DNA from: Bacteroidia bacterium
GTDB taxonomy: Bacteria; Bacteroidota; Bacteroidia; UBA7662
Direction: 5' to 3'
DNA length: 64,000 nucleotides
Assembly (NCBI GenBank): GCA_046291695.1
Contig: JBKBSO010000010.1
Location: forward strand, 40,319 to 104,318
Shown here: piece by piece, positions 6,141 through 40,435 of the stretch
Layout: each line of letters begins with the position of its first letter
Numbering within the stretch: the first letter of the stretch is position 1
Position numbers and translations under genes: made by a program
Notes under the pieces: model-generated
The model's input: the letters and a program-made list of their open reading frames with translations, nothing else
Database searches by the model: none
What the model was told of the DNA's origin: nothing

Positions 6141-7112
6141 TTGGTAGAATTTACTTTTAAGCTTGCAGATGTTAGTCCACTCGAATTTTTCGGGCCAAAT
6201 AACCTGCGTTTAAAAACTTTAAAATCGGCCTTCCCCGAACTGAAGTTTACGGCACGCGGCGATCAGTTGCTGGTAGGTGGCGAAACCTTGGCCCTTGAAC
6301 AGTTTCAACTCAAGTTTGAACGTATTATCAGCCATTATGCGCGGCATAATCGTTTGGCCGACGAAGACTTTGCCTTGTTGCTGCTCGACGAGGATGTACG
6401 CGCTTTTTCGCACCTAAACAGTGAAGAACCCATCGTTTTTGGTCCGAATGGACTGGTGGTAAAGGCACGTTCGCACAATCAGCGCCAGATGGTGGAGTTA
6501 ATTGGCCGTTCCGATATTTTGTTTGCCGTAGGGCCGGCAGGTTCAGGCAAAACCTATACCGCTGTAGCCTTGGCGGTGAGGGCGCTCAAAAACCGGGAAG
6601 TAAAAAAAATTATCCTCACCCGGCCGGCGGTAGAAGCAGGCGAGAGCCTTGGCTTTTTGCCTGGCGACCTGAAGGAAAAGATTGACCCTTATTTGCGCCC
6701 GCTTTATGATGCCCTCGAAGACATGATTCCACCCGCCAAACTGGCCAAATACATCGAAGACAACATCATCGAGATTGCTCCACTGGCCTTTATGCGTGGA
6801 CGAACGCTCGATAAGGCCTTTGTGATCCTCGATGAAGCGCAGAATTGTACCGAGATGCAAATCAAAATGTTCCTCACACGCATGGGGCCCACGGCCAAAT
6901 TCATCATCACCGGCGATCTTACGCAAATTGACCTGCCGCGTCATCAGCGTTCGGGCTTGCCACAAGCACTCCGATTGCTCAAAGAAGTAGAAGGCATCGC
7001 CCAGGTGCACCTCACGGCCTCCGATGTGGTACGCCACCGATTGGTGAAAGACATCATCAGGGCTTACGACAAACAAGAAGACAACCGCAACAGTACCCAA
7101 TCCGAAGCATAA
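6141..7112 (+). CDS. phoH: PhoH-family ATPase
   Basis: Walker [14 protein letters not shown] and Walker [12 protein letters not shown] start. Confidence 0.85.
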
Positions 7113-7113
7113 G

Positions 7114-8058
7114 ATGGCCTTAGCAAACAGTAATTTTTCTTTTACCGGACAAACTTCGCATTACCGCGGTAAAGTCCGTGATGTATATGGCATAGGTGAA
7201 CGCTACCTCGTGATGGTAGCTAGTGACCGCATATCGGCATTTGATGTGATTTTGCCCCGACCGGTGCCATACAAAGGACAGGTGCTCAACCAAACAGCGG
7301 CCTATTTTTTAAAAGCAACTGCCGATTTGGTGCCCAATTGGCTCATCAGCACCCCCGACCCCAATGTGGCCATTGGCTACCGGGCGACGCCATTTCCGGT
7401 GGAGATGGTGATTAGGGGCTACCTGGCCGGGCATGCTTGGCGCGAATACCGCTCGGGCAAACGCAGCATTTGTGGGGTAAGTTTGCCGGATGGTTTGCGC
7501 GAAAACGACAAACTGCCTGAGCCCATCATTACCCCGACTACCAAGGCGCATGAAGGCCACGACATGGACATCAGTCGCGAAGATTTGTTGCGACAGGGCC
7601 TCGTATCAGAAGCACATTACCTACAACTGGAAGCTTATACCCGTAGTTTGTTTACCCGAGGCACCCAAATGGCTGCTGATAAAGGACTCATTTTGGTAGA
7701 TACCAAATATGAATTTGGTTTATATGAAGGCCGGGTGTTGCTGATTGATGAGGTACACACGCCCGATTCGTCGAGGTATTTTTATGCCGATGGTTACGAG
7801 TTGCGACAAGCCGCAGGGGAAGAGCAAAAGCAGCTCTCGAAGGAGTTTGTAAGGCAGTGGTTAATCGCCAATGGGTTTCAGGGGCAGGAGGGTCAACGCG
7901 TACCGGCAATGGATGATGTTTGGCTCGAAACCATCAGCCAGCGTTACATGGAGTTGTATGAAAAAATTACGGGTATGCCCTTTGAGAAGGCCGACATCAG
8001 TGAGATGGAAGCTAGGGTTTATGGGCATGTGGAGGCGGCATTGCGGAGTTTGAAGTAG
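7114..8058 (+). CDS. purC: Phosphoribosylaminoimidazole-succinocarboxamide synthase (SAICAR synthetase)
   Basis: YRGKVRDVY...DRISAFD signature, 314 aa. Confidence 0.85.
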
Positions 8059-8065
8059 GGGTGCT

Positions 8066-8170
8066 CTTGGAGCTCGCTGGGGAGTGCTCGCTGGAGCTCG
8101 CTGGAGAACGTTCGCTTTGCTCACTGGGAAGTACTCGCTGGCGCTCGCTGGGGAACGTTCGCTGGGTTAA
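8066..8170. repeat. GC-rich short tandem repeat block of '..CTCGCTGG' units, locus 1 of 5
   Basis: Tandem 10-14 nt units each ending in CTCGCTGG, directly after the purC stop. The same family occurs at 30906, 32596, 35845 and 52861. Confidence 0.6.
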
Positions 8171-10875: not shown

Positions 10876-13800
10876 ATGCACCCTTACCTGCGCACTAGTC
10901 TACGATTAATTGCCGGATGTTTCGTGGGCCTGCTCTCACTCATCGTGTTGTTGGTGCTGCTGCTACGCGTAGCAGGCGTGCAACAATGGGCTGCTGAAAA
11001 AGGCGCCCTTTGGTTGTCGGATAAAACCGATACGCACATCAGTATCCAAAAATTGCGCTTTAGCTACCGTGGCGATTTGCTCGTAGAGGGCTTGCTCATC
11101 CAATTCCCCGAAGGCGACACCCTGCTCTACAGCCAAAGCCTGCGCACCCAATGCAAATGGTGGGAACTTCCCGCCATATCGGTGCCTTTTGTCGACTGGG
11201 AAGGATTGCAGGCCAATATTCAACAAGACGCAGCAGGCAACTGGAATTTTGCGCGCTTGCTTGCGCCTTTTGTGGCCAAAGAAACGGATAGCTTGCCAGC
11301 CGAAGCAAAGAAAAAAAAGACTTCCGAAACCCCCGAATTGCGCATTGGCCCCATCCACCTAAGCCAATGGGAGCTGCGATATGGTTCAGCCACCGATAGC
11401 TTGCAAATGCAGCTGGCACTGGGAAATCTTGAACTTTGGGCCGATAGCCTGCTGCCCGATCAAAACTTCTACGGCCTGCAGCAATTTGCCTTGCACAATA
11501 GCCGATTTGAACTCCTCAGCAGCGGCAGCCCGGCAGCAGCCGATGACGACAGCAGCCAAAACGTATTGCCCAGAATTAGGATACACCGGCTCGATTTGGG
11601 TGGGCTCGATCTCCGCTACACCGACCTGCAAAACAGCTATGGGCTCGTCTTGGGCCGTCTGGCACTTGAATTGCCCGAACTGGATCTCGATCAACACAAA
11701 ATACGGGTCGATAGCTTTTTGCTGGCCGATAGCCGGCTGGATATGCTGCTGGCAGAAGCCGACAGCAGCGGCGCCCGGGCACCACAAGCTGATAACCAGG
11801 CTTTCGTTTGGCCCGATTGGCAGGCCGATATCTACCAAGTACACCTACTCAATACCCATTTGCTTTTTCAGCAAGGTGCTTCCGCGCCGCAACAGGCAAA
11901 TTTACAATCATTGGCTTCACGCTTGCACTACCGGCCTGGCATGGCGTCGATGGCGCTACAATTGACTAATCTGCGCGAAGGCGGTGGCCTTCAAATTAAC
12001 CATCTGGGCAGCCAACTCAGTTTGAGCAACGAGGCCTTACAGCTTAAGAGCTTGCAACTGCGGTCGGGGCGCTCCGATTTTGAAGCCAGCGGCAGGCTCA
12101 ACTACCCCAATATCGATGCCCTTTTATCGGCCGACAGCAGCCTGAGTCTTCAGTTGGCTTGCAAGTCAACAGGCATTTACCCCATTGATTTTGCCCGTTT
12201 TATGGGCGATATGGCCGAAGACGCACGACTAAAGCCCCTGTTGCCAGTTCCGCTTTCTTTTGAATTGATTACTGAGGGCGATATGCGGGAACTTAAGCTC
12301 GACAGCCTGCAAATCGATTGGGGCGATGGCACTCGGCTGGCAGCGAGTGGCAAACTCGTACAATTGCTCGACAGTGCTCGGATGCAGTTTAATCTGCCCC
12401 GCGTACAGCTGAGTTCGGTGCAAGCCGACTTGAACTTGCTCTATGCAGATACCTCCTTGGCTTGGCCTACCCATTTTTTGCTCGATGCCGGCGTACGGGG
12501 CAGCCGGAGCAGCTTGAGCAGTGGCATGAAGCTGCACTTGCCCGGAGGTACTGCCTTTATCATGGCTGCCGTTGAAGACACGGGCAGAGCGCATTTTACA
12601 CTCGATGCCGACCTGCAAGGACAGGCCTGGGCCGAGCTGCTCAAGCAGCCTGATTTTGGTAATGTGGAACTTGGTTTCAGGCTCGAAGGCAGCGGGCGAG
12701 ATTTGGCCAATCTGGAGATGAAGCTGGCTGGGGAGCTGGAGTTCATTGAATACTTAGAGGAACGATACGAAATGTTGCGGTTCGAAGGCGAATTGAAACA
12801 ACAGCAATTGCGGTTTGCTGCTGATATGAATCAGATGCCCCTTGCCTTCGATCTGAAGATGACTGCCCGGCTCGACAGCCTGGTGCCGGAGGCTGAGCTA
12901 AAGTTGCGCTTAATCCGTGCCAGTTTAAAGCGTCTTGGCTTGCGCGACGATGAGCTGGTGCTCCGCATGCAGCTGGATGCCGGATACCGTGCTCAGGGAG
13001 CAAGCCGCGAAGCGGAATTGCTGCTGACCGACGGCCTGTTCCAAACCGCTACGAGCCGCTATCCGGTGGATAGTTTACGCGCCTGGCTCCAATCCGACAG
13101 CCTGCATTTTGTGGCCGGCTTGCGGAGTGAGTTGGCCGGAGGCGAATTTAGGGCAAATGCCGGAATCGATGAATTGGTGTTGGCCATCAGGCAGCAGCTT
13201 CGCAACTATTTACCCCTGGCTGAAATCGACAGCCTAGAGCGGAAGGATATCCAATTGGCAGGCGAGTTGAAGCTATACGAAAACCGCTTGCTTACCGATT
13301 TGCTGGTTCCCGAATTGCGGCGGCTCGACAGCAGTTCACTCCAGTTGCAGTTCGACCAGGCAGCCGGCACATTACGCATCGATTTACAATCGCCGGCCAT
13401 TGACTATGGCGATGTTTCGGTACGGGGCATGTATATCGATTTGAATAGCAAGCCGGATAGCCTGGAAATGACCGCAGGCTTTGCACGTTTACAGCAAGCC
13501 GACCGCATAGATATACACCCAACGCGTTTGCAAGCCGAAATGCTGGGCGATACCGTACTTTTTGGCCTGCGGATGCAGCGCGAAGATGCCAGCACCTTGT
13601 ACGCCCTCGATGCCTTCATTAACCGCATAGCCGATACCACCCACATTCAGCTCTTGCCCAATCCTTTGGTGTTACAAGGGGTCAACTGGCAAATTCCAAA
13701 AGAGAATTACATTCGTTTTGCACCCGGCTACCTCCGTACCGAAAACTTCAGCTTGCAGCACCAAGAAGAACTGTTGGCCTTGAGCCAGGATGCCCCCGAT

Positions 13801-15819
13801 GCGCTCGATTTGCAATTCGAAGGTTTCCGTTTGTCGAATATTTCGGCCTTGCTCAATGCCGATTCGGTACCCTTGCGTGGTCGCTTGGAGGGCGAGGTGC
13901 AATTTGAGCATATGTTCAGCAACCCGGCTGCACAGGCCAGGTTGGCCATTACGCGCTTACGATTTGGCGAAGAATATCTGGGGAATATGCGCATTACTGC
14001 CACCAACCCAGCTGCCAACCGTTACGACTTTAGTATGGGACTGGCCGATGGAGCTATCCGCATGCGGCTCGAAGGGAATTACGAAGCAATAGCGGGCGAA
14101 CAACTGTTGAATCTTCAACTGCAGCTCGATACCCTGCAGTTAAGCATGCTTACCGCTTTCAGCAACAATCAGTTCAGCAATCCGCAGGGTTTCGTAAGTG
14201 CCCGTTTCGATATCAGTGGAAGTCTTGCCGCACCACAATACACCGGAAGCATGCGATTCCGCAATGCTGCCCTCACGGTAAACAAGCTCAACAATCGCTT
14301 TAGTTTGCCCGATGAACGTATTCGGATTGATAATGCGGGTATGGTGATTGAGCAATTTGAACTGCGCGACCCGCATGGGCACCGGTTGTTTGTATCGGGT
14401 ACCATCAAAACGCCAGAATTATTGCAGCCCGAGCTGGACTTGCGGCTGCGAGCCAACAATTTCCAGCTCATTGATGCCACGGCTAAAAACAACCCCATGT
14501 TTTATGGAAAGGCCAGCGTAACTACAGAAGCGCGTTTGCAGGGGAGTTTTAGCCGACCGATTATTGAAATGAAAGCCAGTTTGAACAAGGGAAGTAAGTT
14601 GTGGTTTGTGGTGCCCGAATCGCAAGCCGGCTTGGTGGAGCGCGAGGGGTTGGTATTGTTTACCGATATGCGTACTGCCTATTGGGACAGCCTTTTTGTT
14701 GGGCAGCAGCAGTTGCAAGACATCACCGGGATTACCTTGATGGCCGTTTTTCAGGTAGATCCGGAAACGGAGCTCACAGTAATTGTGGATGAGCGTTCGG
14801 GAGATAAGTTGCAGGTATCGGGCCGGGCCGATTTGCGCTATGAGCTTTTTCCCAATGGCCGCATGACTCTTTCGGGCGTGTATGAGGTAAACCGTGGGGC
14901 GTATGACCTGAGTTTATACGATGTGGTGCAGCGAAAATTCGAAATTAGCCAGGGCAGTACCATCAGCTGGCGGGGCGATGTGCTTGATGCGGCCCTTGAT
15001 TTGCGTGCCCGCTACCGGGTAAACACAAGCGCCATCGACCTGCTGAGTGAGCAATTGAGTGGGGTTGATGCCAGCACCCTGAGCCGTTATCGGCAGGAGT
15101 TGCCCTTTGATGTGTACACCAACATCCGTGGAGAGCTACTTAAACCACAGGTAAGCTTTTCGCTCGATATGCCCGAAAACCAGCGCGGAGTGCTCGACGG
15201 TAATGTGTATGCCCGGGTGCAACAGCTCAACCAGCAAGAAAGTGAACTGAACAAGCAGGTTTTTTCGCTTTTGGTGCTCAACCGCTTTCTGCCCGCAGGC
15301 GCAGGCTCACAGGTTGGGGCAAGTGCCACAACCCTGGCCCGTTCGAGCGCCAGCCAAGTTTTAAGCGGTCAGCTCAACAGTTTGAGTGCCCGCTACATCA
15401 AAGCAGTAGATGTTGACATGAACCTGAGTAGCTTTACCGATTACCAAGGGGGGCAGGCACAAGACCGCACCGTGGCCAATGTAAATGTGCGCAAAAATTT
15501 GCTCGACGACCGATTGGTAGTACAATTGGGTTCTCAGGTAGATTTGGAAGGGAATCAGCGTCGACAGCAAAATGCCAGTGACATCATTGGCGACGTAACC
15601 CTTGAATACCTGCTCACCGAATCGGGTGATTACCGCATCAGTGCATTTCGCCGGAACCAGTTTGAAGGCCTCATCGAAGGGCAGTTGATTGTAACAGGCA
15701 CCTCGCTGGTGTTTAGCCGTGAATTTAATCGTTTTTCGGAAGCTTTTAAGCGCCGGGCTGCCAGGCCAGAGCACGAAAAAAAGGCCCCACAACCCAAAAC
15801 TGAGGAGGTGGAGCCATGA
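10876..15819 (+). CDS. tamB: Translocation/assembly module TamB-like (AsmA/DUF490 family) giant periplasm-spanning protein
   Basis: 1647 aa with an N-terminal membrane anchor and long repetitive beta-rich sequence. Overlaps the downstream Omp85-family gene by 4 bp. Confidence 0.6.
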   Translation: MHPYLRTSLRLIAGCFVGLLSLIVLLVLLLRVAGVQQWAAEKGALWLSDKTDTHISIQKLRFSYRGDLLVEGLLIQFPEGDTLLYSQSLRTQCKWWELPAISVPFVDWEGLQANIQQDAAGNWNFARLLAPFVAKETDSLPAEAKKKKTSETPELRIGPIHLSQWELRYGSATDSLQMQLALGNLELWADSLLPDQNFYGLQQFALHNSRFELLSSGSPAAADDDSSQNVLPRIRIHRLDLGGLDLRYTDLQNSYGLVLGRLALELPELDLDQHKIRVDSFLLADSRLDMLLAEADSSGARAPQADNQAFVWPDWQADIYQVHLLNTHLLFQQGASAPQQANLQSLASRLHYRPGMASMALQLTNLREGGGLQINHLGSQLSLSNEALQLKSLQLRSGRSDFEASGRLNYPNIDALLSADSSLSLQLACKSTGIYPIDFARFMGDMAEDARLKPLLPVPLSFELITEGDMRELKLDSLQIDWGDGTRLAASGKLVQLLDSARMQFNLPRVQLSSVQADLNLLYADTSLAWPTHFLLDAGVRGSRSSLSSGMKLHLPGGTAFIMAAVEDTGRAHFTLDADLQGQAWAELLKQPDFGNVELGFRLEGSGRDLANLEMKLAGELEFIEYLEERYEMLRFEGELKQQQLRFAADMNQMPLAFDLKMTARLDSLVPEAELKLRLIRASLKRLGLRDDELVLRMQLDAGYRAQGASREAELLLTDGLFQTATSRYPVDSLRAWLQSDSLHFVAGLRSELAGGEFRANAGIDELVLAIRQQLRNYLPLAEIDSLERKDIQLAGELKLYENRLLTDLLVPELRRLDSSSLQLQFDQAAGTLRIDLQSPAIDYGDVSVRGMYIDLNSKPDSLEMTAGFARLQQADRIDIHPTRLQAEMLGDTVLFGLRMQREDASTLYALDAFINRIADTTHIQLLPNPLVLQGVNWQIPKENYIRFAPGYLRTENFSLQHQEELLALSQDAPDALDLQFEGFRLSNISALLNADSVPLRGRLEGEVQFEHMFSNPAAQARLAITRLRFGEEYLGNMRITATNPAANRYDFSMGLADGAIRMRLEGNYEAIAGEQLLNLQLQLDTLQLSMLTAFSNNQFSNPQGFVSARFDISGSLAAPQYTGSMRFRNAALTVNKLNNRFSLPDERIRIDNAGMVIEQFELRDPHGHRLFVSGTIKTPELLQPELDLRLRANNFQLIDATAKNNPMFYGKASVTTEARLQGSFSRPIIEMKASLNKGSKLWFVVPESQAGLVEREGLVLFTDMRTAYWDSLFVGQQQLQDITGITLMAVFQVDPETELTVIVDERSGDKLQVSGRADLRYELFPNGRMTLSGVYEVNRGAYDLSLYDVVQRKFEISQGSTISWRGDVLDAALDLRARYRVNTSAIDLLSEQLSGVDASTLSRYRQELPFDVYTNIRGELLKPQVSFSLDMPENQRGVLDGNVYARVQQLNQQESELNKQVFSLLVLNRFLPAGAGSQVGASATTLARSSASQVLSGQLNSLSARYIKAVDVDMNLSSFTDYQGGQAQDRTVANVNVRKNLLDDRLVVQLGSQVDLEGNQRRQQNASDIIGDVTLEYLLTESGDYRISAFRRNQFEGLIEGQLIVTGTSLVFSREFNRFSEAFKRRAARPEHEKKAPQPKTEEVEP

Positions 15820-18092
15820 GAAAATACTATTGGGCGGCTTTGCTCCTCGTATTGAGTGCTTGTGGTACCCTACGCAAATTGCCCGAAGGCGAGCAGTTGT
15901 ACCGTGGCACCGAAATTGTGCTGCACAGCACCGAGCCCATCGAAAACCGATCGGCGCTCCAGGCAGAACTGGCCAATGTGGTTTTCCCCAAACCCAATGG
16001 CCGTTTGTTTTGGCAGTACCCCGGGATTTATATTCACGAGCGTGCCAAAGCCGAAAAGGGTGCACGACTGTCGAAAAGGCTGAACAAACGCTATGGAGAA
16101 GCTCCGGTTTACCTGAGTCAGCTCAATAATGAAAAAATTGCGCAGCTCATGCAAAACCGGCTCGAAAATCGCGGCTATTTTGACCACGAAATTCGGCTTG
16201 TTAAACAAGGAAAAGGCCGCAAGGGCATACTTCGGGCCGAAATTCAGCTCGATCCGCCCTACCGTTTGCACCAGTATGCCTGGTATGGACCGCAAGACAG
16301 CCTTGCGCGGCTCCTGCTGCCTCAATTGCCCAAAGGCAAGCTACAGCCGGGTACACGCTACGATTTAGATGCCTTGCGAACGGAACGCGAGCGACTCGAT
16401 ACTTGGCTCAAAAACCGGGGATATTATGCCTTTTCGGCCGATTATTTCATTTTTAGGGCCGATACCAACCTCAACAATCGACAATACAACCTTTATTTGG
16501 GCATCAAAGCTGCGAGTCCGCCCGAAGCCTTGTTGCCCTACCGCATCAATAGTGTTTCGGTATTCCCGAATTACCAGGTTCAGGCCGACAGCGGGCAAAG
16601 CAGCAAGCTCGATACGGTAGTGAACCGTGGCATACAGTTTATAGAAGGCGTAGACAAGACCTTCTTGCCACATCACTTACAGCGCTATATTTTGTTGCAG
16701 CCGGGCCAATTGTATGAGCGCAATCGCGAGCTCATGACCAGCAACCGCATCAGTAACTTGGGCAACTTTCGGTTTGTAACCCTGCGTTTTTATCCGACCG
16801 ATTCGATAGTAGGTACTGATCATGCGGTGCAAACGCTTCAGGCCAATTTGTATCTTTCGCCCGCTAATAAGCGCCGTTTGCGATACGAAACGCAGTTTTT
16901 ATCCAAATCGAACAACTTTGTGGGGCCGGCCCTGAAAGCGGGTTACCAGAATCGGAATTTGTTCAAAGGAGGGGAGTTGCTTAACATTGACATGAACCTG
17001 GGCTTTGAAACGCAGTTTGCAGGAGGGCGGCAAACCGGTTTAAATTCCTACGAGGCTGGCATTCGAAGCGAATTGGTATTTCCCCGGGTGTTGGCGCCGG
17101 TTTCGCTGGGCGAAAATGTAAGCCATGGCATTGCCCGTACCCGCATGGTGGTGGGCGGAAGTTTGCTCAATCGGATGCAATTTTACCAGCTCCGTGCCTT
17201 TCAAACTTCTTTTGGTTACACCTGGAATACCAACCGTTTTGTGACGCACGATTTACAGCCGTTTTCGGTTAGTTTTACTGGTTTGGCGCGCACGTCCGAC
17301 GCTTTTGAAATCATATTGGCCAATAATCCTTTCTTGCGACAAAGTTTCGATCAGCGATTTATTGCCGGTATGGTATACCAGTTTACTTTTAGCGAGCTCA
17401 CTGAAAGCAAGCCCCACCGCTGGGTAGCGATTGCCTCGCTCGATATGTCGGGGAATTTATTGGGAGCTTTGAGTGGGAGTGGCCGTTTGTTTGGCGAGCC
17501 CCTGGCGCAGTATGTACGTATCGATGCCGATTTGCGCCACCATTGGGTGCTCAGCAAGGAACGTAGGCTGGTGTTTAGGGCCTTTGCAGGGGGGGGGTAT
17601 AGCTATGGCAATAGCCAAACTTTGCCTTACATTAAGCAGTATTTTTCAGGTGGCCCCAATAGTGTACGGGCCTTTAACATCCGCTCATTGGGACCGGGCA
17701 ATTACCGTCCGCTCGATTTTGATGCGGCTTCATTTTTTGATCAAGCCGGCGACATCAAACTAGAAGCCAACGTGGAATACCGCTTTCCGCTCTTGCCTTA
17801 CCTGAAAGGGGCTTGGTTTTTGGATGCAGGAAATATTTGGCTGCAACGCTTTAACCCGGCTCTGGGTGGCGGACAGTTTACGGCCAATTGGATGCAGGAA
17901 TTGGGTGTGGGTGCCGGCTTTGGCTTGCGCATCGATGCCGACATCCTGGTGTTTCGTTTTGATTTGGCGAGCCCTTTACGTAAGCCCTGGCTTCCTGCCG
18001 GCAGCCGATGGCTGGGCGATTTTGAACCGGGCAGCAGAAACTGGCGTCGCGAGAACCTGAACTTGGTATTTGCTATTGGGTATCCGTTCTGA
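15816..18092 (+). CDS. tamA: Omp85/BamA-TamA family outer-membrane protein (surface antigen D15 barrel)
   Basis: Lipoprotein signal LVLSACG, 758 aa. The C-terminal beta-barrel ends ...FAIGYPF with an aromatic last residue. Coupled to tamB. Confidence 0.65.
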   Translation: MRKYYWAALLLVLSACGTLRKLPEGEQLYRGTEIVLHSTEPIENRSALQAELANVVFPKPNGRLFWQYPGIYIHERAKAEKGARLSKRLNKRYGEAPVYLSQLNNEKIAQLMQNRLENRGYFDHEIRLVKQGKGRKGILRAEIQLDPPYRLHQYAWYGPQDSLARLLLPQLPKGKLQPGTRYDLDALRTERERLDTWLKNRGYYAFSADYFIFRADTNLNNRQYNLYLGIKAASPPEALLPYRINSVSVFPNYQVQADSGQSSKLDTVVNRGIQFIEGVDKTFLPHHLQRYILLQPGQLYERNRELMTSNRISNLGNFRFVTLRFYPTDSIVGTDHAVQTLQANLYLSPANKRRLRYETQFLSKSNNFVGPALKAGYQNRNLFKGGELLNIDMNLGFETQFAGGRQTGLNSYEAGIRSELVFPRVLAPVSLGENVSHGIARTRMVVGGSLLNRMQFYQLRAFQTSFGYTWNTNRFVTHDLQPFSVSFTGLARTSDAFEIILANNPFLRQSFDQRFIAGMVYQFTFSELTESKPHRWVAIASLDMSGNLLGALSGSGRLFGEPLAQYVRIDADLRHHWVLSKERRLVFRAFAGGGYSYGNSQTLPYIKQYFSGGPNSVRAFNIRSLGPGNYRPLDFDAASFFDQAGDIKLEANVEYRFPLLPYLKGAWFLDAGNIWLQRFNPALGGGQFTANWMQELGVGAGFGLRIDADILVFRFDLASPLRKPWLPAGSRWLGDFEPGSRNWRRENLNLVFAIGYPF

Positions 18093-18159
18093 TGAGGCGA
18101 AGCGAGGGGAAGCGCGGCAGTGCAGGTTTGCAACTACGTGCGCTTTAACAACATCAACG

Positions 18160-18362
18160 CGGTCCAAATGCCGTATTGCATGGATGCCGTTCATATGCCC
18201 AAGGCTTCTACTCCGCACCAGCCAGCTGTGGTCTGCGGTCCGCGGTCCAAATGCCGTATTGCATCGAAGCCGTTCATATGTAAAAAGCTTCTACTCCGCA
18301 CATGCCAGCCGCGGTCTGCGGTCTAATCGCCGTATTGCATGGATGTCGTTCATGTGTAAAAA
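18160..18362. repeat. Tandem repeat array 1, about 2.5 copies of the 76-83 bp unit
   Basis: The unit CGCCGTATTGCATGGATGCCGTTCATATG plus a variable half is the same family as the 19846..20455 array. Confidence 0.7.
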
Positions 18363-18443
18363 GCTTAAAACCTAGAACGGCTGTTTGTTACTGCAAGCTC
18401 ACGGCCATTATGACCACCTTGCTCATCCTTTTCACGTAAAGAT

Positions 18444-18685
18444 ATTTCGCCCTTTCAGGGCTTCGATTTTCGCGACTTGCACTTTACCGGGGCTTCACCC
18501 TGGCCTGTTAGCTGCCGCCCCTTCAGGGCTTTTAATGTGTTCGTTTTTGTGATGAAGCACGCCTCCTAAACAGCGCTGATGGCGCGTAATACATCAGGGC
18601 AGGGTGTAGCCTTGTCAGCATGGCCCTATGAATTTTGAGCGCTGAAGGTGCGGAATATACTCCCGTAAGCATTGGGCAATGCGAA
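18444..18685. repeat. Diverged ~230-bp direct repeat, copy A, immediately 3' of vapC
   Basis: About 80% identical to 19482..19705. Shared strings include CGATTTTCG, CACCCTGGCCTGTTAG and GAATTTTGAGCGCTGAAGGTGCG.AATATACTCCCG.AAGC.TTGGG. Confidence 0.6.
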
Positions 18686-18791
18686 ACAAGCTTAATAAGA
18701 TGTGTGATGGCTTGCGACGAATGATCGTTGAACAACACCTAGTAATCAACTAAAGTAAGCATAAACACCGCGATGCGACCAGTAGCCTTAG

Positions 18792-19196
18792 CTACTTTTT
18801 CCAATTTTCAACCTTTAACCCATTAATAGATTCGTAATGTCGCTCGTTATTGGTAATTAGCGTTAGTTCGTTTTCAATCGCAATTCCTGCTATCAAAATG
18901 TCTGATGTTCCAATGGTTATTCCTTTTTGTCTAAGGTCTGCATAAAGGTCACCAGATATTTTTGCTGATTCCTCTGAAATGTGAATGATTGTGTTATTGG
19001 CTACAAATTCTTCAAATTCTTTTATCTGCTTTTCAGCCTTTTTGAATTTGAGTCCACCAAGGACTTCATAATAAGTGATTATGGATATGTTGATGACATC
19101 GAATTCTCTCAAATAGTCGTTGAACCTGGCAACAACTTTTGAGTCTCCTTTGAAGTAGGAGGATAAAATATCCGTATCAACCAAAGATTCAGGCAC
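18792..19196 (-). CDS. vapC: PIN-domain toxin VapC
   Basis: 134 aa. Conserved acidic residues in the DTDIL...E...D...TND pattern expected for a PIN domain. Confidence 0.8.
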   Translation of the reverse strand: MPESLVDTDILSSYFKGDSKVVARFNDYLREFDVINISIITYYEVLGGLKFKKAEKQIKEFEEFVANNTIIHISEESAKISGDLYADLRQKGITIGTSDILIAGIAIENELTLITNNERHYESINGLKVENWKK

Positions 19197-19198
19197 GC

Positions 19199-19429
19199 TC
19201 AGCTGATTTGTCTATCGTTAGTCCTGTTGTCGTGAAGGCTTTTCGTCATTTCATGGAAAAAACTTTCATCAAGGTCTTTCCATGTCCCCGCAAGCTTTAG
19301 CGTCTTATCCTTAGATTTAATTTGGTCTTCAATTTTACTCAATAACATATTGATTTCAGTCAATTTGTCTGCTGACAGTTGCTGAAGTTTCCTAACCAAG
19401 CTGTTCCTAAGTCTGTTCTTCACATTCAT
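19199..19429 (-). CDS. Putative cognate antitoxin (VapB-like) of the PIN toxin
   Basis: 76 aa and 2 bp upstream of vapC on the same strand. The size and tight arrangement are typical of antitoxins. No family-specific motif was recognised. Confidence 0.5.
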   Translation of the reverse strand: MNVKNRLRNSLVRKLQQLSADKLTEINMLLSKIEDQIKSKDKTLKLAGTWKDLDESFFHEMTKSLHDNRTNDRQIS

Positions 19430-19481
19430 ATCTCAAAACTACAAAATTACTGTTACTAATTCCTTGTTCGGTGATGGGTTT

Positions 19482-19705
19482 CGATTTTCGTGGTCTTGTA
19501 TAATCAAGGGCTGCACCCTGGCCTGTTAGATGACGCCCTTTCAAGGCTTAAAGTGAGTTCGTTTTTATGATGTAGTACGGCTCCAAAACAGCGTTGAAGG
19601 CGCGTAATACAATAAGGCAGGGTGAAGCCCTGTCGTAATATGGCCCCACGAATTTTGAGCGCTGAAGGTGCGAAATATACTCCCGCAAGCTTTGGGTGAT
19701 CCGGA
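19482..19705. repeat. Diverged ~230-bp direct repeat, copy B, immediately 5' of the vapBC pair
   Basis: Aligns with 18444..18685. It is followed by a 22-nt GAAGCGCGGCAGTGCRGGTTTG block that also occurs at 18100..18125. Confidence 0.6.
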
Positions 19706-19845
19706 AGGAAGCGCGGCAGTGCGGGTTTGAAGCCTTGTACGTTTGAACAGCGCTAACGCGGTACAAGACCGCAGTCCGCAGTCCGCAGCTGGACGGTGCA
19801 TGCTTGACACGAAAAACGCTTGAACAGCTTTTACGCAGTTCAAAT

Positions 19846-20455
19846 AATGTATTGCATCATAGCCATTCATATGTAAAAAGCTTCTACTCCGCACATGCCA
19901 GCCGCGGTCTGCGGTCTAATCGCCGTATTGCATGGATGTCGTTCATATGCCCAAAGCTTCAAATCCGCACAAACCAGCCGTGGTCTGCGGTCCGCGGTCT
20001 AATCGCCGTATTGCATGGATGCCGTTCATATGCCCAAGGCTTCAAATCCGCACCAGCCAGCCGTGGTCTGCGGTCCGCGGTCCAAATGACGTATTGCATG
20101 GATGTCGTTCATATGGAAAAAGCTTCAAATCCGCACAAACCAGCCGTGGTCTGCGGTCTAATCGCCGTATTGCATGGATGCCGTTTATATGGAAAAAGCT
20201 TCAAATCCGCACAAACCAGCCGTGGTCTGCGGTCCGCGAATCGCCGTATTGCATGGATGCCGTTCATATGGAAAAAGCTTCAAATCCGCACAAACCAGCC
20301 GTGGTCTGCGGTCCGCGGTCCAAATGCCGTATTGCATCGAAGCCGTTCATATGGAAAAAGCTTCTACTCCGCACCAGCCAGCTGCGGTCTGCGGTCTAAT
20401 CGCCGTATTGCATGGATGCCGTTCATATGCCCAAGGCTTCAAACCCGCACCGGCT
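19846..20455. repeat. Tandem repeat array 2, about 8 copies of the 76-83 bp unit (minisatellite)
   Basis: Measured periods are 83, 83, 76, 79, 83 and 76 bp. The length difference comes from a 7-bp GCGGTCC indel. Each unit has a conserved half containing CATATG and a variable half present in two or three sequence variants. Confidence 0.8.
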
Positions 20456-20597
20456 AGCATCGCCCCGCGTTCCGTGCTGTTACGGATGCCGGCGGCGACT
20501 GTGGAAAATTCGGGCAAAAACAGCCGGCTTAACATTGCTTTTAAACCTTGTATTTGGGTGATAATTATTACTTTTACCCCCCTCAACATTTAATATT

Positions 20598-23156
20598 ATG
20601 CAAGCTAAGAACAACGATCCGGTTTGGAAGCGCGTTTTGGTGCGATCGGAAGTTCCCAAACAATTAGAACCCCTGCGAACTTTAGCGCAGAATTTATGGT
20701 GGTCGTGGAATTATCGCGCCATCGAACTTTTTGAATCTATAGATCCACTCATGTGGGAACGCTCGCAGCATAACCCCGTTTCGCTCCTCGAAAGCCTCGA
20801 TTTCGATCAATACCAGGCACTCATCAACAACAAGGGTTTTATGGCCAATATGCAGGCTGTACTCAAGGAGTTTGAAGCGTATATGAATACTCCAAAAGTT
20901 GCCAAAACCGCCAAAGTGGCCTATTTCTGTATGGAATACGGGCTGCATTCGGTAATCAAACTCTACTCTGGTGGTTTGGGGGTTTTGGCCGGCGATTACC
21001 TCAAAGAGGCTTCTGACTGTAACTCCGACATGGTAGCCATCGGTTTGCTCTACCGTTATGGTTACTTCAAACAAAGCCTTTCGCCCCATGGGGAGCAGGT
21101 GGCCAATTACAAGCCACAAAAATTCAGCTACCTGCCGGTACTTCCGGTGAAAGACAAGGATGGCAACTGGGTTAAAATCAACATTCAGCTCCCCGGCCGT
21201 ACTTTGCACGCCAAAATCTGGAAAATTCAGGTTGGTCGCGTGCCTTTGTACCTGCTCGATACCGATTTGGAAGAAAACCAGGAAGGCGACCGCAGCATCT
21301 CGCATCAGCTGTATGGTGGCGATTGGGAGAACCGACTGAAACAGGAAATCCTGCTTGGTATAGGTGGTGTAAAAGCCCTCGATGCTTTGGGTATTCAACC
21401 TGAGATTTGCCATATGAATGAAGGCCACGCGGCCTTCACCGGCCTGGAGCGGGTGAAAAAGCTGGTGCAGGAACAAGGCCTCAGCTTCCACCAGGCGGTA
21501 GAAGTGGTGAAATCATCGTCGCTCTTTACCACGCACACACCGGTACCGGCCGGACACGATGCCTTCAACGAAGATTTGCTCAAAACCTACCTCTACAACT
21601 ATTCCGAAATCTTCCAAATCAGCTGGGACAAGTTTATGGCCCTCGGCCGTATTCATGAGTTTGCACACGAGGAGCTTTTTTCGATGAGCCACCTGGCAGC
21701 TCGTTTGAGCCAAGAAATTAACGGGGTAAGCCGCATCCACGGGCGGGTGTCGCGCGAGATGCTACAGCCACTCTGGCCGGGCTTCGAGGAAGATGAACTG
21801 CATGTGGATTATGTAACCAACGGGGTGCATTATTACACCTGGACCAGCATCGCCTTCCAGAAGTTGTATGAAAAGCATTTCGGCAAAAATTTCCACCTCG
21901 ACCAAAGCAATACCAAACATTGGGAAAAAATCCACAAAGTACCCGATGATGAAATTTGGGAAACCCGATTGAGCCTCAAACGTCGACTCATTGAGTCGGT
22001 TACCAAAAAGCTGCAGCGCGATTTAACCCTGCGGCAGGAGAGTCCCGGTAAGATTCTAAATGTAGTTAACAGCCTCAATGAAAATGCCCTGATCATTGGC
22101 TTTGCCCGACGTTTTGCGACCTATAAGCGTGCACATTTGCTTTTCTCGAACCTCGACCGTTTAAGTAAAATGGTGAATAATGCCGATCGCCCTGTGCAAT
22201 TTATTTTTGCAGGGAAAGCGCATCCTGCCGACCAAGGGGGTCAAGCACTTATCAAGCGCATCATCGAGGTAGCGCAGATGCCTGAATTTGCCGGTAAAAT
22301 TTTCTTCCTCGAAAATTATGATATGGCCCTGGCGCGCCGCTTGGTGCATGGGGTTGACGTATGGTTGAATACGCCTACCCGTCCACTTGAAGCTTCAGGA
22401 ACCTCAGGCATGAAGGCCACCATGAATGGCGTGCTCAATTTGAGCGTGCTCGATGGCTGGTGGGCCGAAGGATATATTCCTGAAGGAGGCTGGGCCTTGC
22501 CCGAAGAGCAAACCTATGTGAACAAAGACTTCCAGGATGAGCTCGATGCCGAAACCCTGTACAACATTATCGAAACCCAGGTGGTGCCCGACTATTTTAG
22601 CCGCAACGAAAGCGGGATGTCGCCGGCATGGATGAGCCGCATTCGCCATACCATCGCTGGCATAGCGCCGCATTTCACCATGAAACGCATGCTCGACGAA
22701 TATTACAGCAAGTTCTACAATAAGCTGCAGGGTCGTGCAAACCTGATTTCATCCAAGTCGTATGCCAATGCCAAAGCCCTGGCCGACTGGAAAGCCAAGG
22801 TGTACTTTGGTTGGGATGGCATTCAGGTAATGGCCATCGACACTTTCGATACCTTTAACAATGCGCTACAGTTGGGTGAAAATTTCAATGGCAAAATCAC
22901 CTTGGAACTCAATCAACTAAGCAAAGACGACATTTCGCTGGAGGTGATTGTTGCTGAAAAGCAAGGTATTGAAGAGAAGCATGTGATTGTTCACCGCGAA
23001 GAAGTAAAAGCCAGCAAATCGTCGGGGAACCGGGTGATGTATGAACTCAATCTACCCATGAACCGCTCGGGGGTGTTCGATTATGGCTTCCGTATTACGC
23101 CGAAAAACAAATTGCTGGCCTACCGCCACGATTTTAACCTGGTGCGCTGGATTTAA
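20598..23156 (+). CDS. glgP: Alpha-glucan (glycogen/maltodextrin) phosphorylase, GT35 family with N-terminal DUF3417
   Basis: 852 aa. YFCMEYGL...GGLGVLAGD near the N-terminus and the pyridoxal-phosphate site GTSGMKATMNG. Confidence 0.85.
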   Translation: MQAKNNDPVWKRVLVRSEVPKQLEPLRTLAQNLWWSWNYRAIELFESIDPLMWERSQHNPVSLLESLDFDQYQALINNKGFMANMQAVLKEFEAYMNTPKVAKTAKVAYFCMEYGLHSVIKLYSGGLGVLAGDYLKEASDCNSDMVAIGLLYRYGYFKQSLSPHGEQVANYKPQKFSYLPVLPVKDKDGNWVKINIQLPGRTLHAKIWKIQVGRVPLYLLDTDLEENQEGDRSISHQLYGGDWENRLKQEILLGIGGVKALDALGIQPEICHMNEGHAAFTGLERVKKLVQEQGLSFHQAVEVVKSSSLFTTHTPVPAGHDAFNEDLLKTYLYNYSEIFQISWDKFMALGRIHEFAHEELFSMSHLAARLSQEINGVSRIHGRVSREMLQPLWPGFEEDELHVDYVTNGVHYYTWTSIAFQKLYEKHFGKNFHLDQSNTKHWEKIHKVPDDEIWETRLSLKRRLIESVTKKLQRDLTLRQESPGKILNVVNSLNENALIIGFARRFATYKRAHLLFSNLDRLSKMVNNADRPVQFIFAGKAHPADQGGQALIKRIIEVAQMPEFAGKIFFLENYDMALARRLVHGVDVWLNTPTRPLEASGTSGMKATMNGVLNLSVLDGWWAEGYIPEGGWALPEEQTYVNKDFQDELDAETLYNIIETQVVPDYFSRNESGMSPAWMSRIRHTIAGIAPHFTMKRMLDEYYSKFYNKLQGRANLISSKSYANAKALADWKAKVYFGWDGIQVMAIDTFDTFNNALQLGENFNGKITLELNQLSKDDISLEVIVAEKQGIEEKHVIVHREEVKASKSSGNRVMYELNLPMNRSGVFDYGFRITPKNKLLAYRHDFNLVRWI

Positions 23157-32595: not shown

Positions 32596-32690
32596 CCCCG
32601 TGCCCGCTCTGCCCCCAGCGAGCGAAGCGAGCGCTCCCCACGAGCGAAGCGAGTACTCCCCACGAGCAAAGCGAGTACTCCCTTCGAAAA
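32596..32690. repeat. GC-rich CTCGCTGG-family repeat block, locus 3, in inverted orientation
   Basis: CCAGCGAGCGAAGCGAGCGCTCCCCACGAGCGAAGCGAGTACTCCCCACGAGC... is the reverse complement of the locus 1 and locus 5 units. Confidence 0.55.
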
Positions 32691-35844: not shown

Positions 35845-35900
35845 CCGAAGGACCCAGCGCGAAGCGCGCTCCCCACTCGCGAAGCGAGTCTCCCCAGTGA
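35845..35900. repeat. GC-rich CTCGCTGG-family repeat block, locus 4, in inverted orientation
   Basis: CCAGCGCGAAGCGCGCTCCCCACTCGCGAAGCGAGTCTCCCCAGTGAGCGCCAGCGAAC lies after the M1 peptidase stop. Confidence 0.5.
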
Positions 35901-38461: not shown

Positions 38462-40435
38462 TTAGCCCGCCATATAAGCCCCTATCCGGGCAGCTACCTG
38501 CGCCGGCTTGAGTTCAAAATGCTCGGCCAGGGCATCGCCAGGTGCAGAATACCCGAAGGTATCAACGCCGATGTTCAGCCCGTTTAAACCGGTAAATCGC
38601 TGCCAACCTAAGGTTACACCAGCTTCTATGGATACCCGGTATTTGGCCTCGTTACTCATGAGATCGTTGCGGTAGGCCTCGTCTTGCTCGTCGAACAATT
38701 CCCAACAAGGTGTGCTCACTACGCGGATATTGCCACGACCTTCGGCCAGTTGCTGTGCAGCTTCTATGGCTACCCAAACTTCTGAACCACTGGCGTAAAT
38801 CACGGTTTCTACGGCTTCACCGGGCTGGGTTTCGAATTTCACATAGGCGCCACGTTCAATTTCCACCGGACCGGGCAGAGTAGGTACATTTTGGCGTGTT
38901 AAGGCAAGTAAACTAGGGCGATGCGACTCTTGCAGCCACTCAAGCATGCAAGCAACCGTTTCGCGGGCATCGGCCGGACGGAAAACCAGCAGGTTTGGAA
39001 TGGTACGCAAGCTCATCACATGCTCAATTGACTGATGCGTAGGGCCGTCTTCACCCAGAAAAATGCTGTCGTGGGTAAATACGTGCAATACTTGTAGCTC
39101 CTGAATGGCGCTCATGCGGATGGCATTACGGCTGTAATCGCTGAAGGTAAGGAAGGTGGCGCCATAAGGCAACAAGCCGCCATAAAGCGCCATGCCATTG
39201 CAAATGGCAGCCATGGGGAATTCGCGTACGCCAAAGGCCAGGTTACGGCCTGCGCGATTTTCAATGCTGAATTCGCCCACTGCCGCAGCAAAGGCTGCTG
39301 TATTGTTAGAGGGCTCAAGGTCGGCACTGCCCCCCATAATGCCCGGAATTTGCTTGCCCATATATTCCAACACCTTGCCAAAGGCAACGCGTGTGGCAAG
39401 CGAACTGCCTACTTCAAAGCTGGGCAACTCATCCAATGCTACCTTGCCTTCAAACAAACCACTGCAAAACTGATCGAATGCTGAATCGCTTTTACGACGA
39501 TTTTTCAAATTGATTTCCCAGGCATCGGCCTCGGCATGGTAACCCTCAAGTTTTTCGTTGAAATAGTCAATTACTTCTTCGCTCACTTGGAAGAATTGCT
39601 CGGGATCGAGCCCGAGTTTATGCTTGGTAGCAGCAATTTCCTCAGGCTTTAAAGGCTCGCCATGCGTTTTGTGGCTGCCTTCCATGGTGGCTGTACCTTT
39701 GGCCATGATGGTTTCGCCAATAATGAGCAAGGGTTTGCTGCGCTCGCGCTGTCCATGGTCGAGTGCGCTGCGGATGGCTGCATGGTCGTGACCGTCAATT
39801 TCTATGACCTCCCACTGCATGGCCTCAAAGAGTTGCCGGAAGTTTACAGAACTAACACGATTGGTTTTGCCCGAAATTTGAATATCGTTTTTGTCGTAAT
39901 ACACCACCAGGTTGTGCAAGCCGAGATGCCCGGCCAGCTGCATGGCACCTAATGCTACATCCTCCTGCAAGTCCCCATCGCCCACCAAACTGTAAATGCG
40001 GTTGTTAATCACATCACGGCCCAATACCTCTTGTTGATGCAAACTGGCAATGGCCATGCCCACCGCCATGCTTACTCCCTGTCCTAATGGGCCGGTAGTG
40101 GCTTCAACACCGGGGGTGAGGTGACTTTCCGGATGGCCGGGCGTAAGACTACCCAACTGACGGAAGTTTTCAAGCTCTTCTATGGGGAGTAAGCCCATGA
40201 AGTGCAGCAAGCTATACAACAACATCGATTCGTGACCGGCCGAAAGCACAAAACGGTCGCGATTGTGCCATTTTGGGTAACGCGGAGCAAACCGGAGGTA
40301 TTCGCGAAACAATATCACAGCGAAATCTGAAGAGGAAAAGGCTCCACCGGGATGGCCAGAATTGGCCTTGCGGGTGGCGTCCATTACCAGGCCTTTTAAT
40401 TCGGCGATTACGCGTTGGTCGAGTTGTGCTGACAT
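38462..40435 (-). CDS. tkt: Transketolase
   Basis: Thiamine-diphosphate motif GHPGG...GDG..EG and 657 aa from the MSAQLDQRV start at 40435. The 65 codons further upstream in the called ORF lie in the promoter region. Confidence 0.85.
   Translation of the reverse strand: MSAQLDQRVIAELKGLVMDATRKANSGHPGGAFSSSDFAVILFREYLRFAPRYPKWHNRDRFVLSAGHESMLLYSLLHFMGLLPIEELENFRQLGSLTPGHPESHLTPGVEATTGPLGQGVSMAVGMAIASLHQQEVLGRDVINNRIYSLVGDGDLQEDVALGAMQLAGHLGLHNLVVYYDKNDIQISGKTNRVSSVNFRQLFEAMQWEVIEIDGHDHAAIRSALDHGQRERSKPLLIIGETIMAKGTATMEGSHKTHGEPLKPEEIAATKHKLGLDPEQFFQVSEEVIDYFNEKLEGYHAEADAWEINLKNRRKSDSAFDQFCSGLFEGKVALDELPSFEVGSSLATRVAFGKVLEYMGKQIPGIMGGSADLEPSNNTAAFAAAVGEFSIENRAGRNLAFGVREFPMAAICNGMALYGGLLPYGATFLTFSDYSRNAIRMSAIQELQVLHVFTHDSIFLGEDGPTHQSIEHVMSLRTIPNLLVFRPADARETVACMLEWLQESHRPSLLALTRQNVPTLPGPVEIERGAYVKFETQPGEAVETVIYASGSEVWVAIEAAQQLAEGRGNIRVVSTPCWELFDEQDEAYRNDLMSNEAKYRVSIEAGVTLGWQRFTGLNGLNIGVDTFGYSAPGDALAEHFELKPAQVAARIGAYMAG

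Follow-up and report, generated by a model that had tools for sequence, protein, structure and literature searches.

The 64,000-nucleotide window analysed here (positions 40,319 to 104,318 of contig JBKBSO010000010.1, Bacteroidia bacterium assembly GCA_046291695.1) carries a tandem array of units of about 80 bp upstream of the glgP gene. This array, termed array 2, is probably the right arm, in expanded form, of a foldback repeat element that is non-coding, restricted to its lineage and similar to the miniature inverted-repeat transposable elements (MITEs). The basic element is ~320 bp long and consists of two diverged inverted ~80-bp units followed by two direct units, an order that makes its ends an imperfect terminal inverted repeat. 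In the window genome the direct units would have been multiplied head-to-tail to eight; slipped replication, unequal recombination or gene conversion is the presumed mechanism. The heptad tract nested at each unit junction would slip independently, giving periods of 76, 79 and 83 bp. A second, truncated copy lies 1.6 kb upstream, and a VapBC-like module with foldback repeats of its own, likely acquired horizontally, is placed between the two copies. The open reading frames (ORFs) that cross the array are accidents of a stop-poor plus strand, and the element presumably has no dedicated cellular function.

Tandem units and inverted arms

Tandem Repeats Finder (TRF), a check proposed in the first-pass annotation, was run on the window and returned 6.8 copies of an 83-bp period at 19904-20450 (84% matches, score 751), together with an overlapping 238-bp period at 19834-20450 (2.6 copies, 87%). 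The anchor GTATTGCAT occurs on the plus strand only, at 19849, 19925, 20008, 20091, 20167, 20246, 20329 and 20405. A 29-nt core is matched ten times at three or fewer mismatches, always on the plus strand, as compared to none in 100 shuffles; three of the ten matches belong to array 1, the upstream copy (18161-18370). The minisatellite that the annotation had described at 19846-20455 is thus real. Array 2 contains seven full units of 76, 83, 83, 76, 79, 83 and 76 bp, and the terminal eighth unit (U8) continues into the right terminus ...CCGCGTTCC. The mean column identity of the aligned units is 84%, and a unit profile finds them with nhmmer E values from 3e-25 to 3e-17. Pairwise identity ranges from 63 to 95%: units U2 to U6 are mutually 86-95% alike, U1 and U8 being more divergent.

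The heptad GYGGTCY is present two or three times at every unit junction, and the gaps of the alignment fall at columns 77-83. The period is 76, 83 or 79 bp because the heptad copy number is two, three or a partial third, the last of these occurring in one unit of 79 bp. The annotation had reported periods of 76 and 83 bp switched by a 7-bp indel; the indel is confirmed, and the two periods apply to six units, the 79-bp unit being the exception. Its second and third unit variants were found as written (at 20115, 20191 and 20270, and at 19874), whereas the first, CCCAAGGCTTCTACTCCGCACCAGCCAGC, does not occur within the interval claimed and is found only at 18198, in array 1. A trimer higher-order repeat, hinted at by the 238-bp TRF period and by a CAAATG junction at every third unit, was rejected: pairwise identity is 86.4% at lag 1 and 86.5% at lag 3.

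The element of array 2 extends beyond the tandem units and spans 19707-20469 (763 bp). Its left arm is made of two inverted units, which the unit profile recognises on the minus strand at 19718-19764 (E 1.7e-4) and 19775-19839 (E 0.008; nhmmer). Between them lies an inverted heptad tract, AGACCGC AGTCCGC AGTCCGC, at 19766-19788. With these inverted units at its left, array 2 is bracketed by a terminal inverted repeat of 44 nt, which is imperfect (77% complementary). In the minimum free energy (MFE) fold of 19700-20600 the left arm pairs at long range with the last units (z -2.7).

Array 1 sits 1.6 kb upstream of array 2 and is without a right arm. TRF reports it at 18158-18323 with a period of 83 and 2.0 copies, and the unit profile matches its three units, A1, A2 and the truncated A3, with E values of 8e-25, 4e-24 and 3e-10 (nhmmer). 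Its left arm begins 16 nt past the stop codon of the Omp85/TamA-like gene and belongs to direct-repeat family D3, in which 18108-18167 is 77% identical to 19707-19766. Inverted repeat I4 pairs A1 (18186-18218) with the D3 copy at 19719-19751 and not with the left arm of array 1. The closest unit pairs between the two arrays are A2-U7 (95%) and A1-U3 (92%). The heptad variation in both arms, the similarity of the middle units and these cross-array pairings fit slippage and local homogenisation. The first-pass annotation had treated the minisatellite as isolated; it had missed the inverted arms, array 1 and the homologue described below.

A homologous element at a second locus

A homologous element was found in another Bacteroidota organism, on a 27-kb contig of the JGI metagenome 3300075147 (Ga0645785_05749, hereafter L068). 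The L068 element is collinear with that of the window and ~320 bp long; it starts with two inverted units, which are diverged, and continues with two direct ones. Its direct units are 76-83% identical to those of the window (blastn E to 2e-32; nhmmer 9e-22 and 1e-19). The left arm (7017-7195) aligns lengthwise with window positions 19690-19850, differing by one heptad fewer (two versus three) and by a 27-nt central insertion, and the right ends of the two elements align as well. Both elements fold into the same long imperfect hairpin, the ends of the L068 element also pairing with each other. Thus, there are eight direct units in the window and two in L068, at different loci. These loci are non-orthologous: the element begins ~15-20 nt past the stop codon of feoB in L068 and lies between tamA and glgP in the window. 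Judged by these alignments, the elements form a defined family whose ends are conserved and which occupies non-orthologous loci in the two genomes. It was also observed that the L068 element, at 7017-7370, exactly fills the gap between feoB and a convergent gene for a Cro/C1-type helix-turn-helix (HTH) protein.

Four GTDB representative metagenome-assembled genomes (L003, L004, L006 and L008) encode a GlgP that is 87-90% identical to that of the window. In these relatives only ~100-150 nt precede glgP, and the repeat was not found there, nhmmer included. Their glgP is preceded by a different gene order without tamBA, so an empty-site comparison is impossible. The different locus of the L068 element, together with the repeat-free relatives, points to gain or spread rather than to an old local feature. 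Such spread may have occurred by transposition or recombination. One of the relatives (L003, GlgP 90% identical) carries at 19196-19503, beside a tRNA gene, an unrelated tandem repeat of 115 bp x 2.7 that includes GCAGTCCGC...GCGGTCTGGGCTTTTTT. It may be that minisatellites are common between the genes of this lineage.

The element can be assigned to the MITEs only in part. It is small, non-coding and without an internal transposase (763 bp here, ~320 bp in L068). Terminal inverted repeats are present, long and imperfect instead of short and crisp. As regards dispersal, the window has two copies, both within a single intergenic region, and L068 has one at its non-orthologous locus. The arrangement of a leader, variable tandem repeats and a tail is seen in both genomes, with the same left arm and eight versus two units. 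A target-site duplication was not seen by eye at 19700/20470 or at ~7030/7340 of L068, which is a weak negative because the exact termini are uncertain. The array also agrees with the description of bacterial minisatellites as head-to-tail units of 10-100 bp.

Several observations, the lack of a target-site duplication among them, weigh against the reading of array 2 as part of a mobile foldback element. A Pfam search of all sizeable ORFs of the 64-kb window revealed no transposase, integrase, REP-associated tyrosine transposase (RAYT), reverse-transcriptase or cas gene. No copy of the element was found in the window beyond the two adjacent ones, the repeats of the island being all confined to it. 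Only one homologue is known elsewhere, and the words 'dispersed' and 'mobile' would thus rest on two genomes. Scans with the exact pattern GTATTGCATNGANGNCGTTNATNTG gave nothing in the GTDB representative genomes or in IMG/VR; this pattern is too strict for diverged members of the family, since the L068 units themselves fail it. Its single match in JGI metagenomes (L001) was attributed to chance, as were six IMG/VR matches of a looser pattern, which have no nhmmer support. Furthermore, the anchor GTATTGCAT is unchanged in all 11 window units and in both L068 units, 13 direct units in total, and not in the inverted arms; such invariance could mean a sequence-specific function instead of neutrality. 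Finally, the copy number of the array rests on a single assembly.

The last point leads to a further possibility, namely that the element is real and the eight-unit array is in part a product of assembly, with a wrong number or order of units, as short reads cannot resolve 600 bp of 84%-identical units. SRR31360864, the only sample that carries the strain, yielded short-read Logan contigs that agree exactly with the window and stop within units: L070 ends at 18199, L069 corresponds to 18324-19785 and L002 begins at 20414. The short-read assembly thus breaks at every array boundary, and no contig extends over a unit junction. Because of these breaks the number and order of the units rest on the one assembly of the window, whereas the unique parts of the island are independently confirmed by the same contigs. 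However, assemblers tend to collapse repeats rather than inflate them, the units differ enough (63-95% pairwise) to allow unique paths at larger k, and the independently assembled L068 also has head-to-tail direct units. We therefore regard a misassembled array as improbable.

The closest precedents for the window element are BrickBuilt and MITEPgRS (MITE464) of Porphyromonas gingivalis, a member of the same phylum. Klein et al. described these as strictly intergenic MITEs with an internal minisatellite, having a leader, a tail and inverted ends, with units of 23 or 41 nt in 1 to ~23 copies (Klein et al. 2015, PMC4596501). They are restricted to a species or lineage, with no BLAST matches elsewhere; copies truncated at one end are often seen, and hypothetical genes are predicted over them by annotation pipelines (PMC4596501). 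The flanks of the tandem repeats in MITEPgRS are themselves repetitive, and promoter activity has been demonstrated for BrickBuilt (PMC4596501). The window element is similar in being intergenic and lineage-restricted, in its leader-minisatellite-tail order and inverted ends, and in having a truncated copy and spurious genes. It differs in several respects. Its unit is 76-83 bp long against 23 or 41 nt, its leader consists of inverted copies of its own unit, making the whole element a foldback, and its ends (~44 nt, 77%) contrast with the 11-12-nt IS5-like terminal inverted repeats of the Porphyromonas elements. Its units carry no -7 box.

Other known systems are less similar. Mycobacterial interspersed repetitive unit-variable number tandem repeats (MIRU-VNTR) and other bacterial minisatellites are intergenic tandem units of ~50-100 bp whose copy number varies by locus or genome, and in this the window array resembles them. 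MIRUs are situated inside operons, and their short ORFs are coupled to the genes on either side, whereas the window array keeps no consistent frame. Repetitive extragenic palindromic sequences (REPs) and their bacterial interspersed mosaic elements (BIMEs), REPINs and enterobacterial repetitive intergenic consensus (ERIC) sequences, all of proteobacteria, lie after gene ends as hairpin-forming inverted copies, sometimes in arrays. The window element is likewise extragenic, sits just past gene ends and has hairpin-forming inverted copies. REPs are extragenic repeats built on palindromes of 20-40 nt (PMC3733652). The window units, in contrast, are ~80 nt long and do not fold on themselves, the array is entirely direct and no RAYT gene is nearby; the REP/BIME/REPIN class was rejected because the unit is not a short palindrome (-5.1 and -7.6 kcal/mol on the two strands).

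Coding status and alternative explanations

As the first-pass annotation had judged, the array does not code for protein and the ORFs that cross it are artefacts. This follows from periods of 76, 79 and 83 bp that are not multiples of 3, from the mixing of frames and from the absence of related proteins other than repeat-derived ORFs. Across 19846-20455 the plus-strand frames contain 0, 4 and 3 stops and each minus-strand frame contains 7, so the assertion that all three plus frames stay open turned out to be correct for one of them only. That a repeat-spanning ORF encodes a real repeat protein has next to no probability. One plus frame does remain open for 217 codons, GenBank does list the 139-aa ORF as a hypothetical protein, and the Pfam family MDN1_4th (Midasin AAA lid) does score 30.8 bits on the 217-aa ORF, above the gathering cut-off of 27. 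However, the 217-aa ORF reads one and the same core in three frames (RRIAWMPFI, IAVLHGCRSY and YCMDVVHM), and there is no Bacteroidetes -7 box upstream of it. The MDN1_4th match is a false positive: its score adds up weak repeated stretches, each of which fails on its own. The overlapping 155-aa and 139-aa ORFs have no Pfam match.

Two very large protein searches agree with this. A word-indexed search of the 217-aa ORF against 5.8e9 proteins retrieved only the ORF of the window itself. With exhaustive phmmer against 1.84e9 representatives, one further related match was obtained: P0003, listed as a hypothetical protein of 106 aa, is itself a repeat-derived ORF and maps to the feoB-HTH gap of L068. 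P0003 used as a query matched only itself, and a synthetic six-frame minus-strand query had no protein match. A 987-aa repeat ORF with 28% identity (P0002) was judged to be an unrelated satellite translation. A tandem-repeat protein was accordingly rejected, given the three periods, the three frames and the lack of true homologues.

A near-constant 29-nt core between more variable stretches is loosely reminiscent of a CRISPR array or of the target of a diversity-generating retroelement (DGR). The annotation had already set the CRISPR resemblance aside, and correctly so: the 'spacers' are homologous to each other and common to units and genomes, and cas genes are lacking from the window. No Cas match resulted from a PADLOC search, which covered only vapC, the antitoxin, the 217-aa ORF, the Fic protein and the HTH gene of L068. 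In favour of a diversified array, an A state is included in 8 of the 11 variable columns of the variable half. Over the whole unit, however, 16 of the 28 variable columns involve A, which is close to expectation. The DGR was rejected, there being no reverse transcriptase, no adenine bias and no coding region. A CRISPR-like or diversity-generating array is effectively refuted, its probability being close to nil.

The annotation had also suggested a phase-variable contingency tract, an array of protein-binding sites or a transcribed repeat RNA; the analysis yielded positive evidence for none of the three. The first of these is unlikely, since the array is upstream of the candidate glgP promoter and a -7 box is missing from its units. 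Indeed, the Bacteroidetes -7 box TAnnTTTG is absent from the direct units on both strands. Such boxes are present on the minus strand (TAATTTTG at 19449 and TAGTTTTG at 19441), just upstream of the antitoxin gene, and a relaxed form occurs 22 nt upstream of the glgP start. Scans for sigma-70-type promoters and for terminators gave counts close to those of shuffled sequences.

In the second suggestion the units would form an array of sequence-specific protein-binding sites, that is, a cis-acting platform such as an operator, an insulator or a centromere-like array. It would stand upstream of glgP or serve the toxin-antitoxin module, with CCGTATTGCAT...CATATG or GYGGTCY as candidate contacts. 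The anchor GTATTGCAT stays fixed while neighbouring columns vary, the heptads occur in both direct and inverted orientation, and the glgP promoter region follows directly downstream of the array, the toxin-antitoxin operon starting ~400 nt away from it. However, invariance of a 9-mer over two genomes is not statistically compelling, and a spacing of 76, 79 and 83 bp keeps no helical phase. Moreover, glgP of the relatives has a similar promoter-proximal region with no array, the L068 element is flanked by convergent gene ends instead of preceding a gene, and beside the array there is no gene for partition, replication or a dedicated regulator in the window. A platform of binding sites therefore seems unlikely to us.

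Known centromere arrays are sopC of F, with 12 x 43 bp, and those heptad arrays to which omega of pSM19035 binds. The window array is similar to plasmid centromeres and iterons in its direct units with an invariant core, its heptads in two orientations and the toxin-antitoxin genes nearby. It differs in its chromosomal housekeeping setting, its variable period and a homologue, in L068, without a toxin-antitoxin module. An iteron or centromere-like array was rejected, as rep and par genes were not found in the window.

The third suggestion can be given a more specific form, in which the foldback acts as an RNA transcribed at the 3' end of the tamBA or feoAB operon. The long hairpin would end transcription or shield the mRNA in the manner of REP/BIME and ERIC sequences, and the extra units would be passengers in its loop. 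Both independent insertions begin within ~15-20 nt past the stop codon of a plus-strand gene and are oriented alike. In L068 the fold of the entire element is better than that of shuffled sequences (-135.5 kcal/mol, z -2.9), as is that of the window region mentioned above. RNAalifold on both elements gives 73 shared pairs, 4 of them changed on both sides, and a T-rich run follows the L068 hairpin. This run overlaps the 3' end of the HTH gene. However, covariation on the L068 structure was no better than in the control, 137 of 500 shuffles reaching it, so that the pairing is explicable by palindromic origin alone. There is no T-run at the right end of array 2, array 1 lacks a right arm altogether, and the Rfam check, run as proposed, matched no known RNA family to the array, whether gathering thresholds or E<=10 were applied. 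Single units, whose consensus folds at only -5.1 (+) and -7.6 (-) kcal/mol, show no meaningful covariation, and because they are nearly structureless a transcribed repeat RNA is not favoured. We consider a functional hairpin RNA a doubtful explanation.

Taken broadly, the notion that the units are functional cis-acting modules, with core and heptads recruiting a DNA-binding protein or the foldback forming a very long hairpin RNA, would have little probability. In its protein version, the number of units could tune a nucleoprotein platform near glgP and vapBC through CCGTATTGCAT...CATATG and GYGGTCY. A non-coding MITE-like foldback element with an expanded right arm appears to account better for the array.

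Genomic setting and significance

Coordinates of the features are collected in Table 1. The stretch of 2.5 kb between tamA and glgP contains, in this order, an inverted unit with array 1, the foldback PAL1, the VapC/antitoxin pair on the minus strand, the foldback PAL2, and the left arm with array 2. Array 2 is followed by ~130 nt of glgP upstream sequence. The 2.5-kb stretch had no match in plasmid and phage collections (blastn, distant mode). A promoter-proximal TTAC(T/A)TTTAC box of glgP is shared with the repeat-free relatives.

Table 1. Positions (window coordinates) of the repeat elements, overlapping ORFs and neighbouring genes
Feature	Position	Strand	Description
Array 2	19837-20469	+	Eight direct units U1-U8; TRF, anchors, alignment, nhmmer
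Array-2 left arm	19707-19843	-	Two diverged inverted units, 19707-19766 and 19784-19843; inverted repeats I1, I3, I5, I7
Left terminal inverted repeat	19708-19751		Inverted repeat I1; pairs with 20418-20461
Right terminal inverted repeat	20418-20461		Inside U8; inverted repeat I1, MFE fold
Nested heptad tract GYGGTCY x3	20299-20321	+	TRF period-7 rows, unit alignment; others at 19978-19999 and 20061-20083
Array 1	18161-18370	+	A1 83 bp, A2 76 bp, truncated A3; TRF, core and anchor matches, nhmmer
Array-1 left arm	18108-18167	-	One diverged inverted unit; direct-repeat family D3
217-aa ORF through array 2	19804-20457	+	Judged an artefact
155-aa ORF	19932-20399	+	Judged an artefact
139-aa ORF	20174-20593	+	Artefact; identical to GenBank hypothetical protein ACK417_07990 [Bacteroidia bacterium]
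PAL1	18456-18686	+	~230-bp foldback; families D2, D4; fold -95.4 kcal/mol, z -2.5
PAL2	19475-19706	+	Second 230-bp copy; abuts left terminus of array-2 element; fold z -3.2
VapC-like PIN toxin	18792-19196	-	Pfam PIN, E 3e-12
Putative antitoxin	19199-19429	-	76 aa
Omp85/TamA-like gene	15816-18092	+	Ends just before array 1; TamB upstream at 10876-15819
Candidate glgP promoter	20548-20576	+	TTG-N18-TACTTTTA; downstream of array 2
glgP, alpha-glucan phosphorylase	20598-23156	+	Pfam Phosphorylase, DUF3417; downstream of array 2

The toxin-antitoxin pair between the two arrays has a GC content of ~36%, as compared to ~51% nearby; the putative antitoxin belongs to no Pfam family. PAL1 and PAL2 are direct repeats of each other, ~85% identical, and fall outside the unit family. 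The two copies, 1018-1020 bp apart, bracket the low-GC VapBC-like module, and this PAL-toxin-antitoxin-PAL order is suggestive of a cassette or of a unit flanked by MITEs. An integron attC site was sought by eye as R''(RYYYAAC)...R'(GTTRRRY) and rejected for the PAL copies: the boxes are in the wrong order, with GTTAGAT on the 5' arm, and the length is ~230 bp versus 57-141. The lack of an integrase in the window also counts against an integron. Within PAL1, at 18486-18530, the Rfam family Acido-Lenti-1 gives a sub-threshold match (23.6 bits versus 37).

A second family of short repeats, CAGCGAGCG/GCGAAGCGAG with CCCC/GGGG, occurs in the window in both orientations with periods of 10-24 nt. 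Its sites, all intergenic, are at 8061-8165, 18094-18118, 32613-32682, 35858-35896 and 52872-53026. One of them abuts the left end of array 1, and the family is absent from the fetched loci of the relatives. Elsewhere the window is ordinary chromosome and encodes alternative complex III (ACIII) subunits, PurC, TamAB, GlgP, transketolase, RecA, Def and RuvX. Its single tRNA gene, tRNA-Met at 56423-56497, is followed after ~200 bp by a gene for a Fic/DOC-domain protein (56706-57785; SoFic-like, PADLOC E 4e-14), and this region may be a small integrated island.

The array is a real feature and a fairly ordinary one, which adds to a kind of element already known in Porphyromonas. It explains three overlapping spurious ORFs, one of them in GenBank, and an above-threshold false Pfam match that automatic pipelines would accept; the entry ACK417_07990 should be removed from the public record. 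It also explains why short-read assembly breaks at this site in this organism, and it could serve as a VNTR marker for strain typing. Further, it marks a rearranged intergenic island with a foreign toxin-antitoxin module. The finding has no bearing on long-standing open questions unless the units bind a protein or act as RNA; should either be true, they would represent a new regulatory repeat family in uncultured Bacteroidota. What remains of interest are the core that is invariant across genomes, the placement of both insertions after a stop codon and the PAL-flanked toxin-antitoxin module. In general, the element would be a second example in Bacteroidota of a foldback, MITE-like element with an internal minisatellite, set apart by its unusually long unit and its nested heptads.

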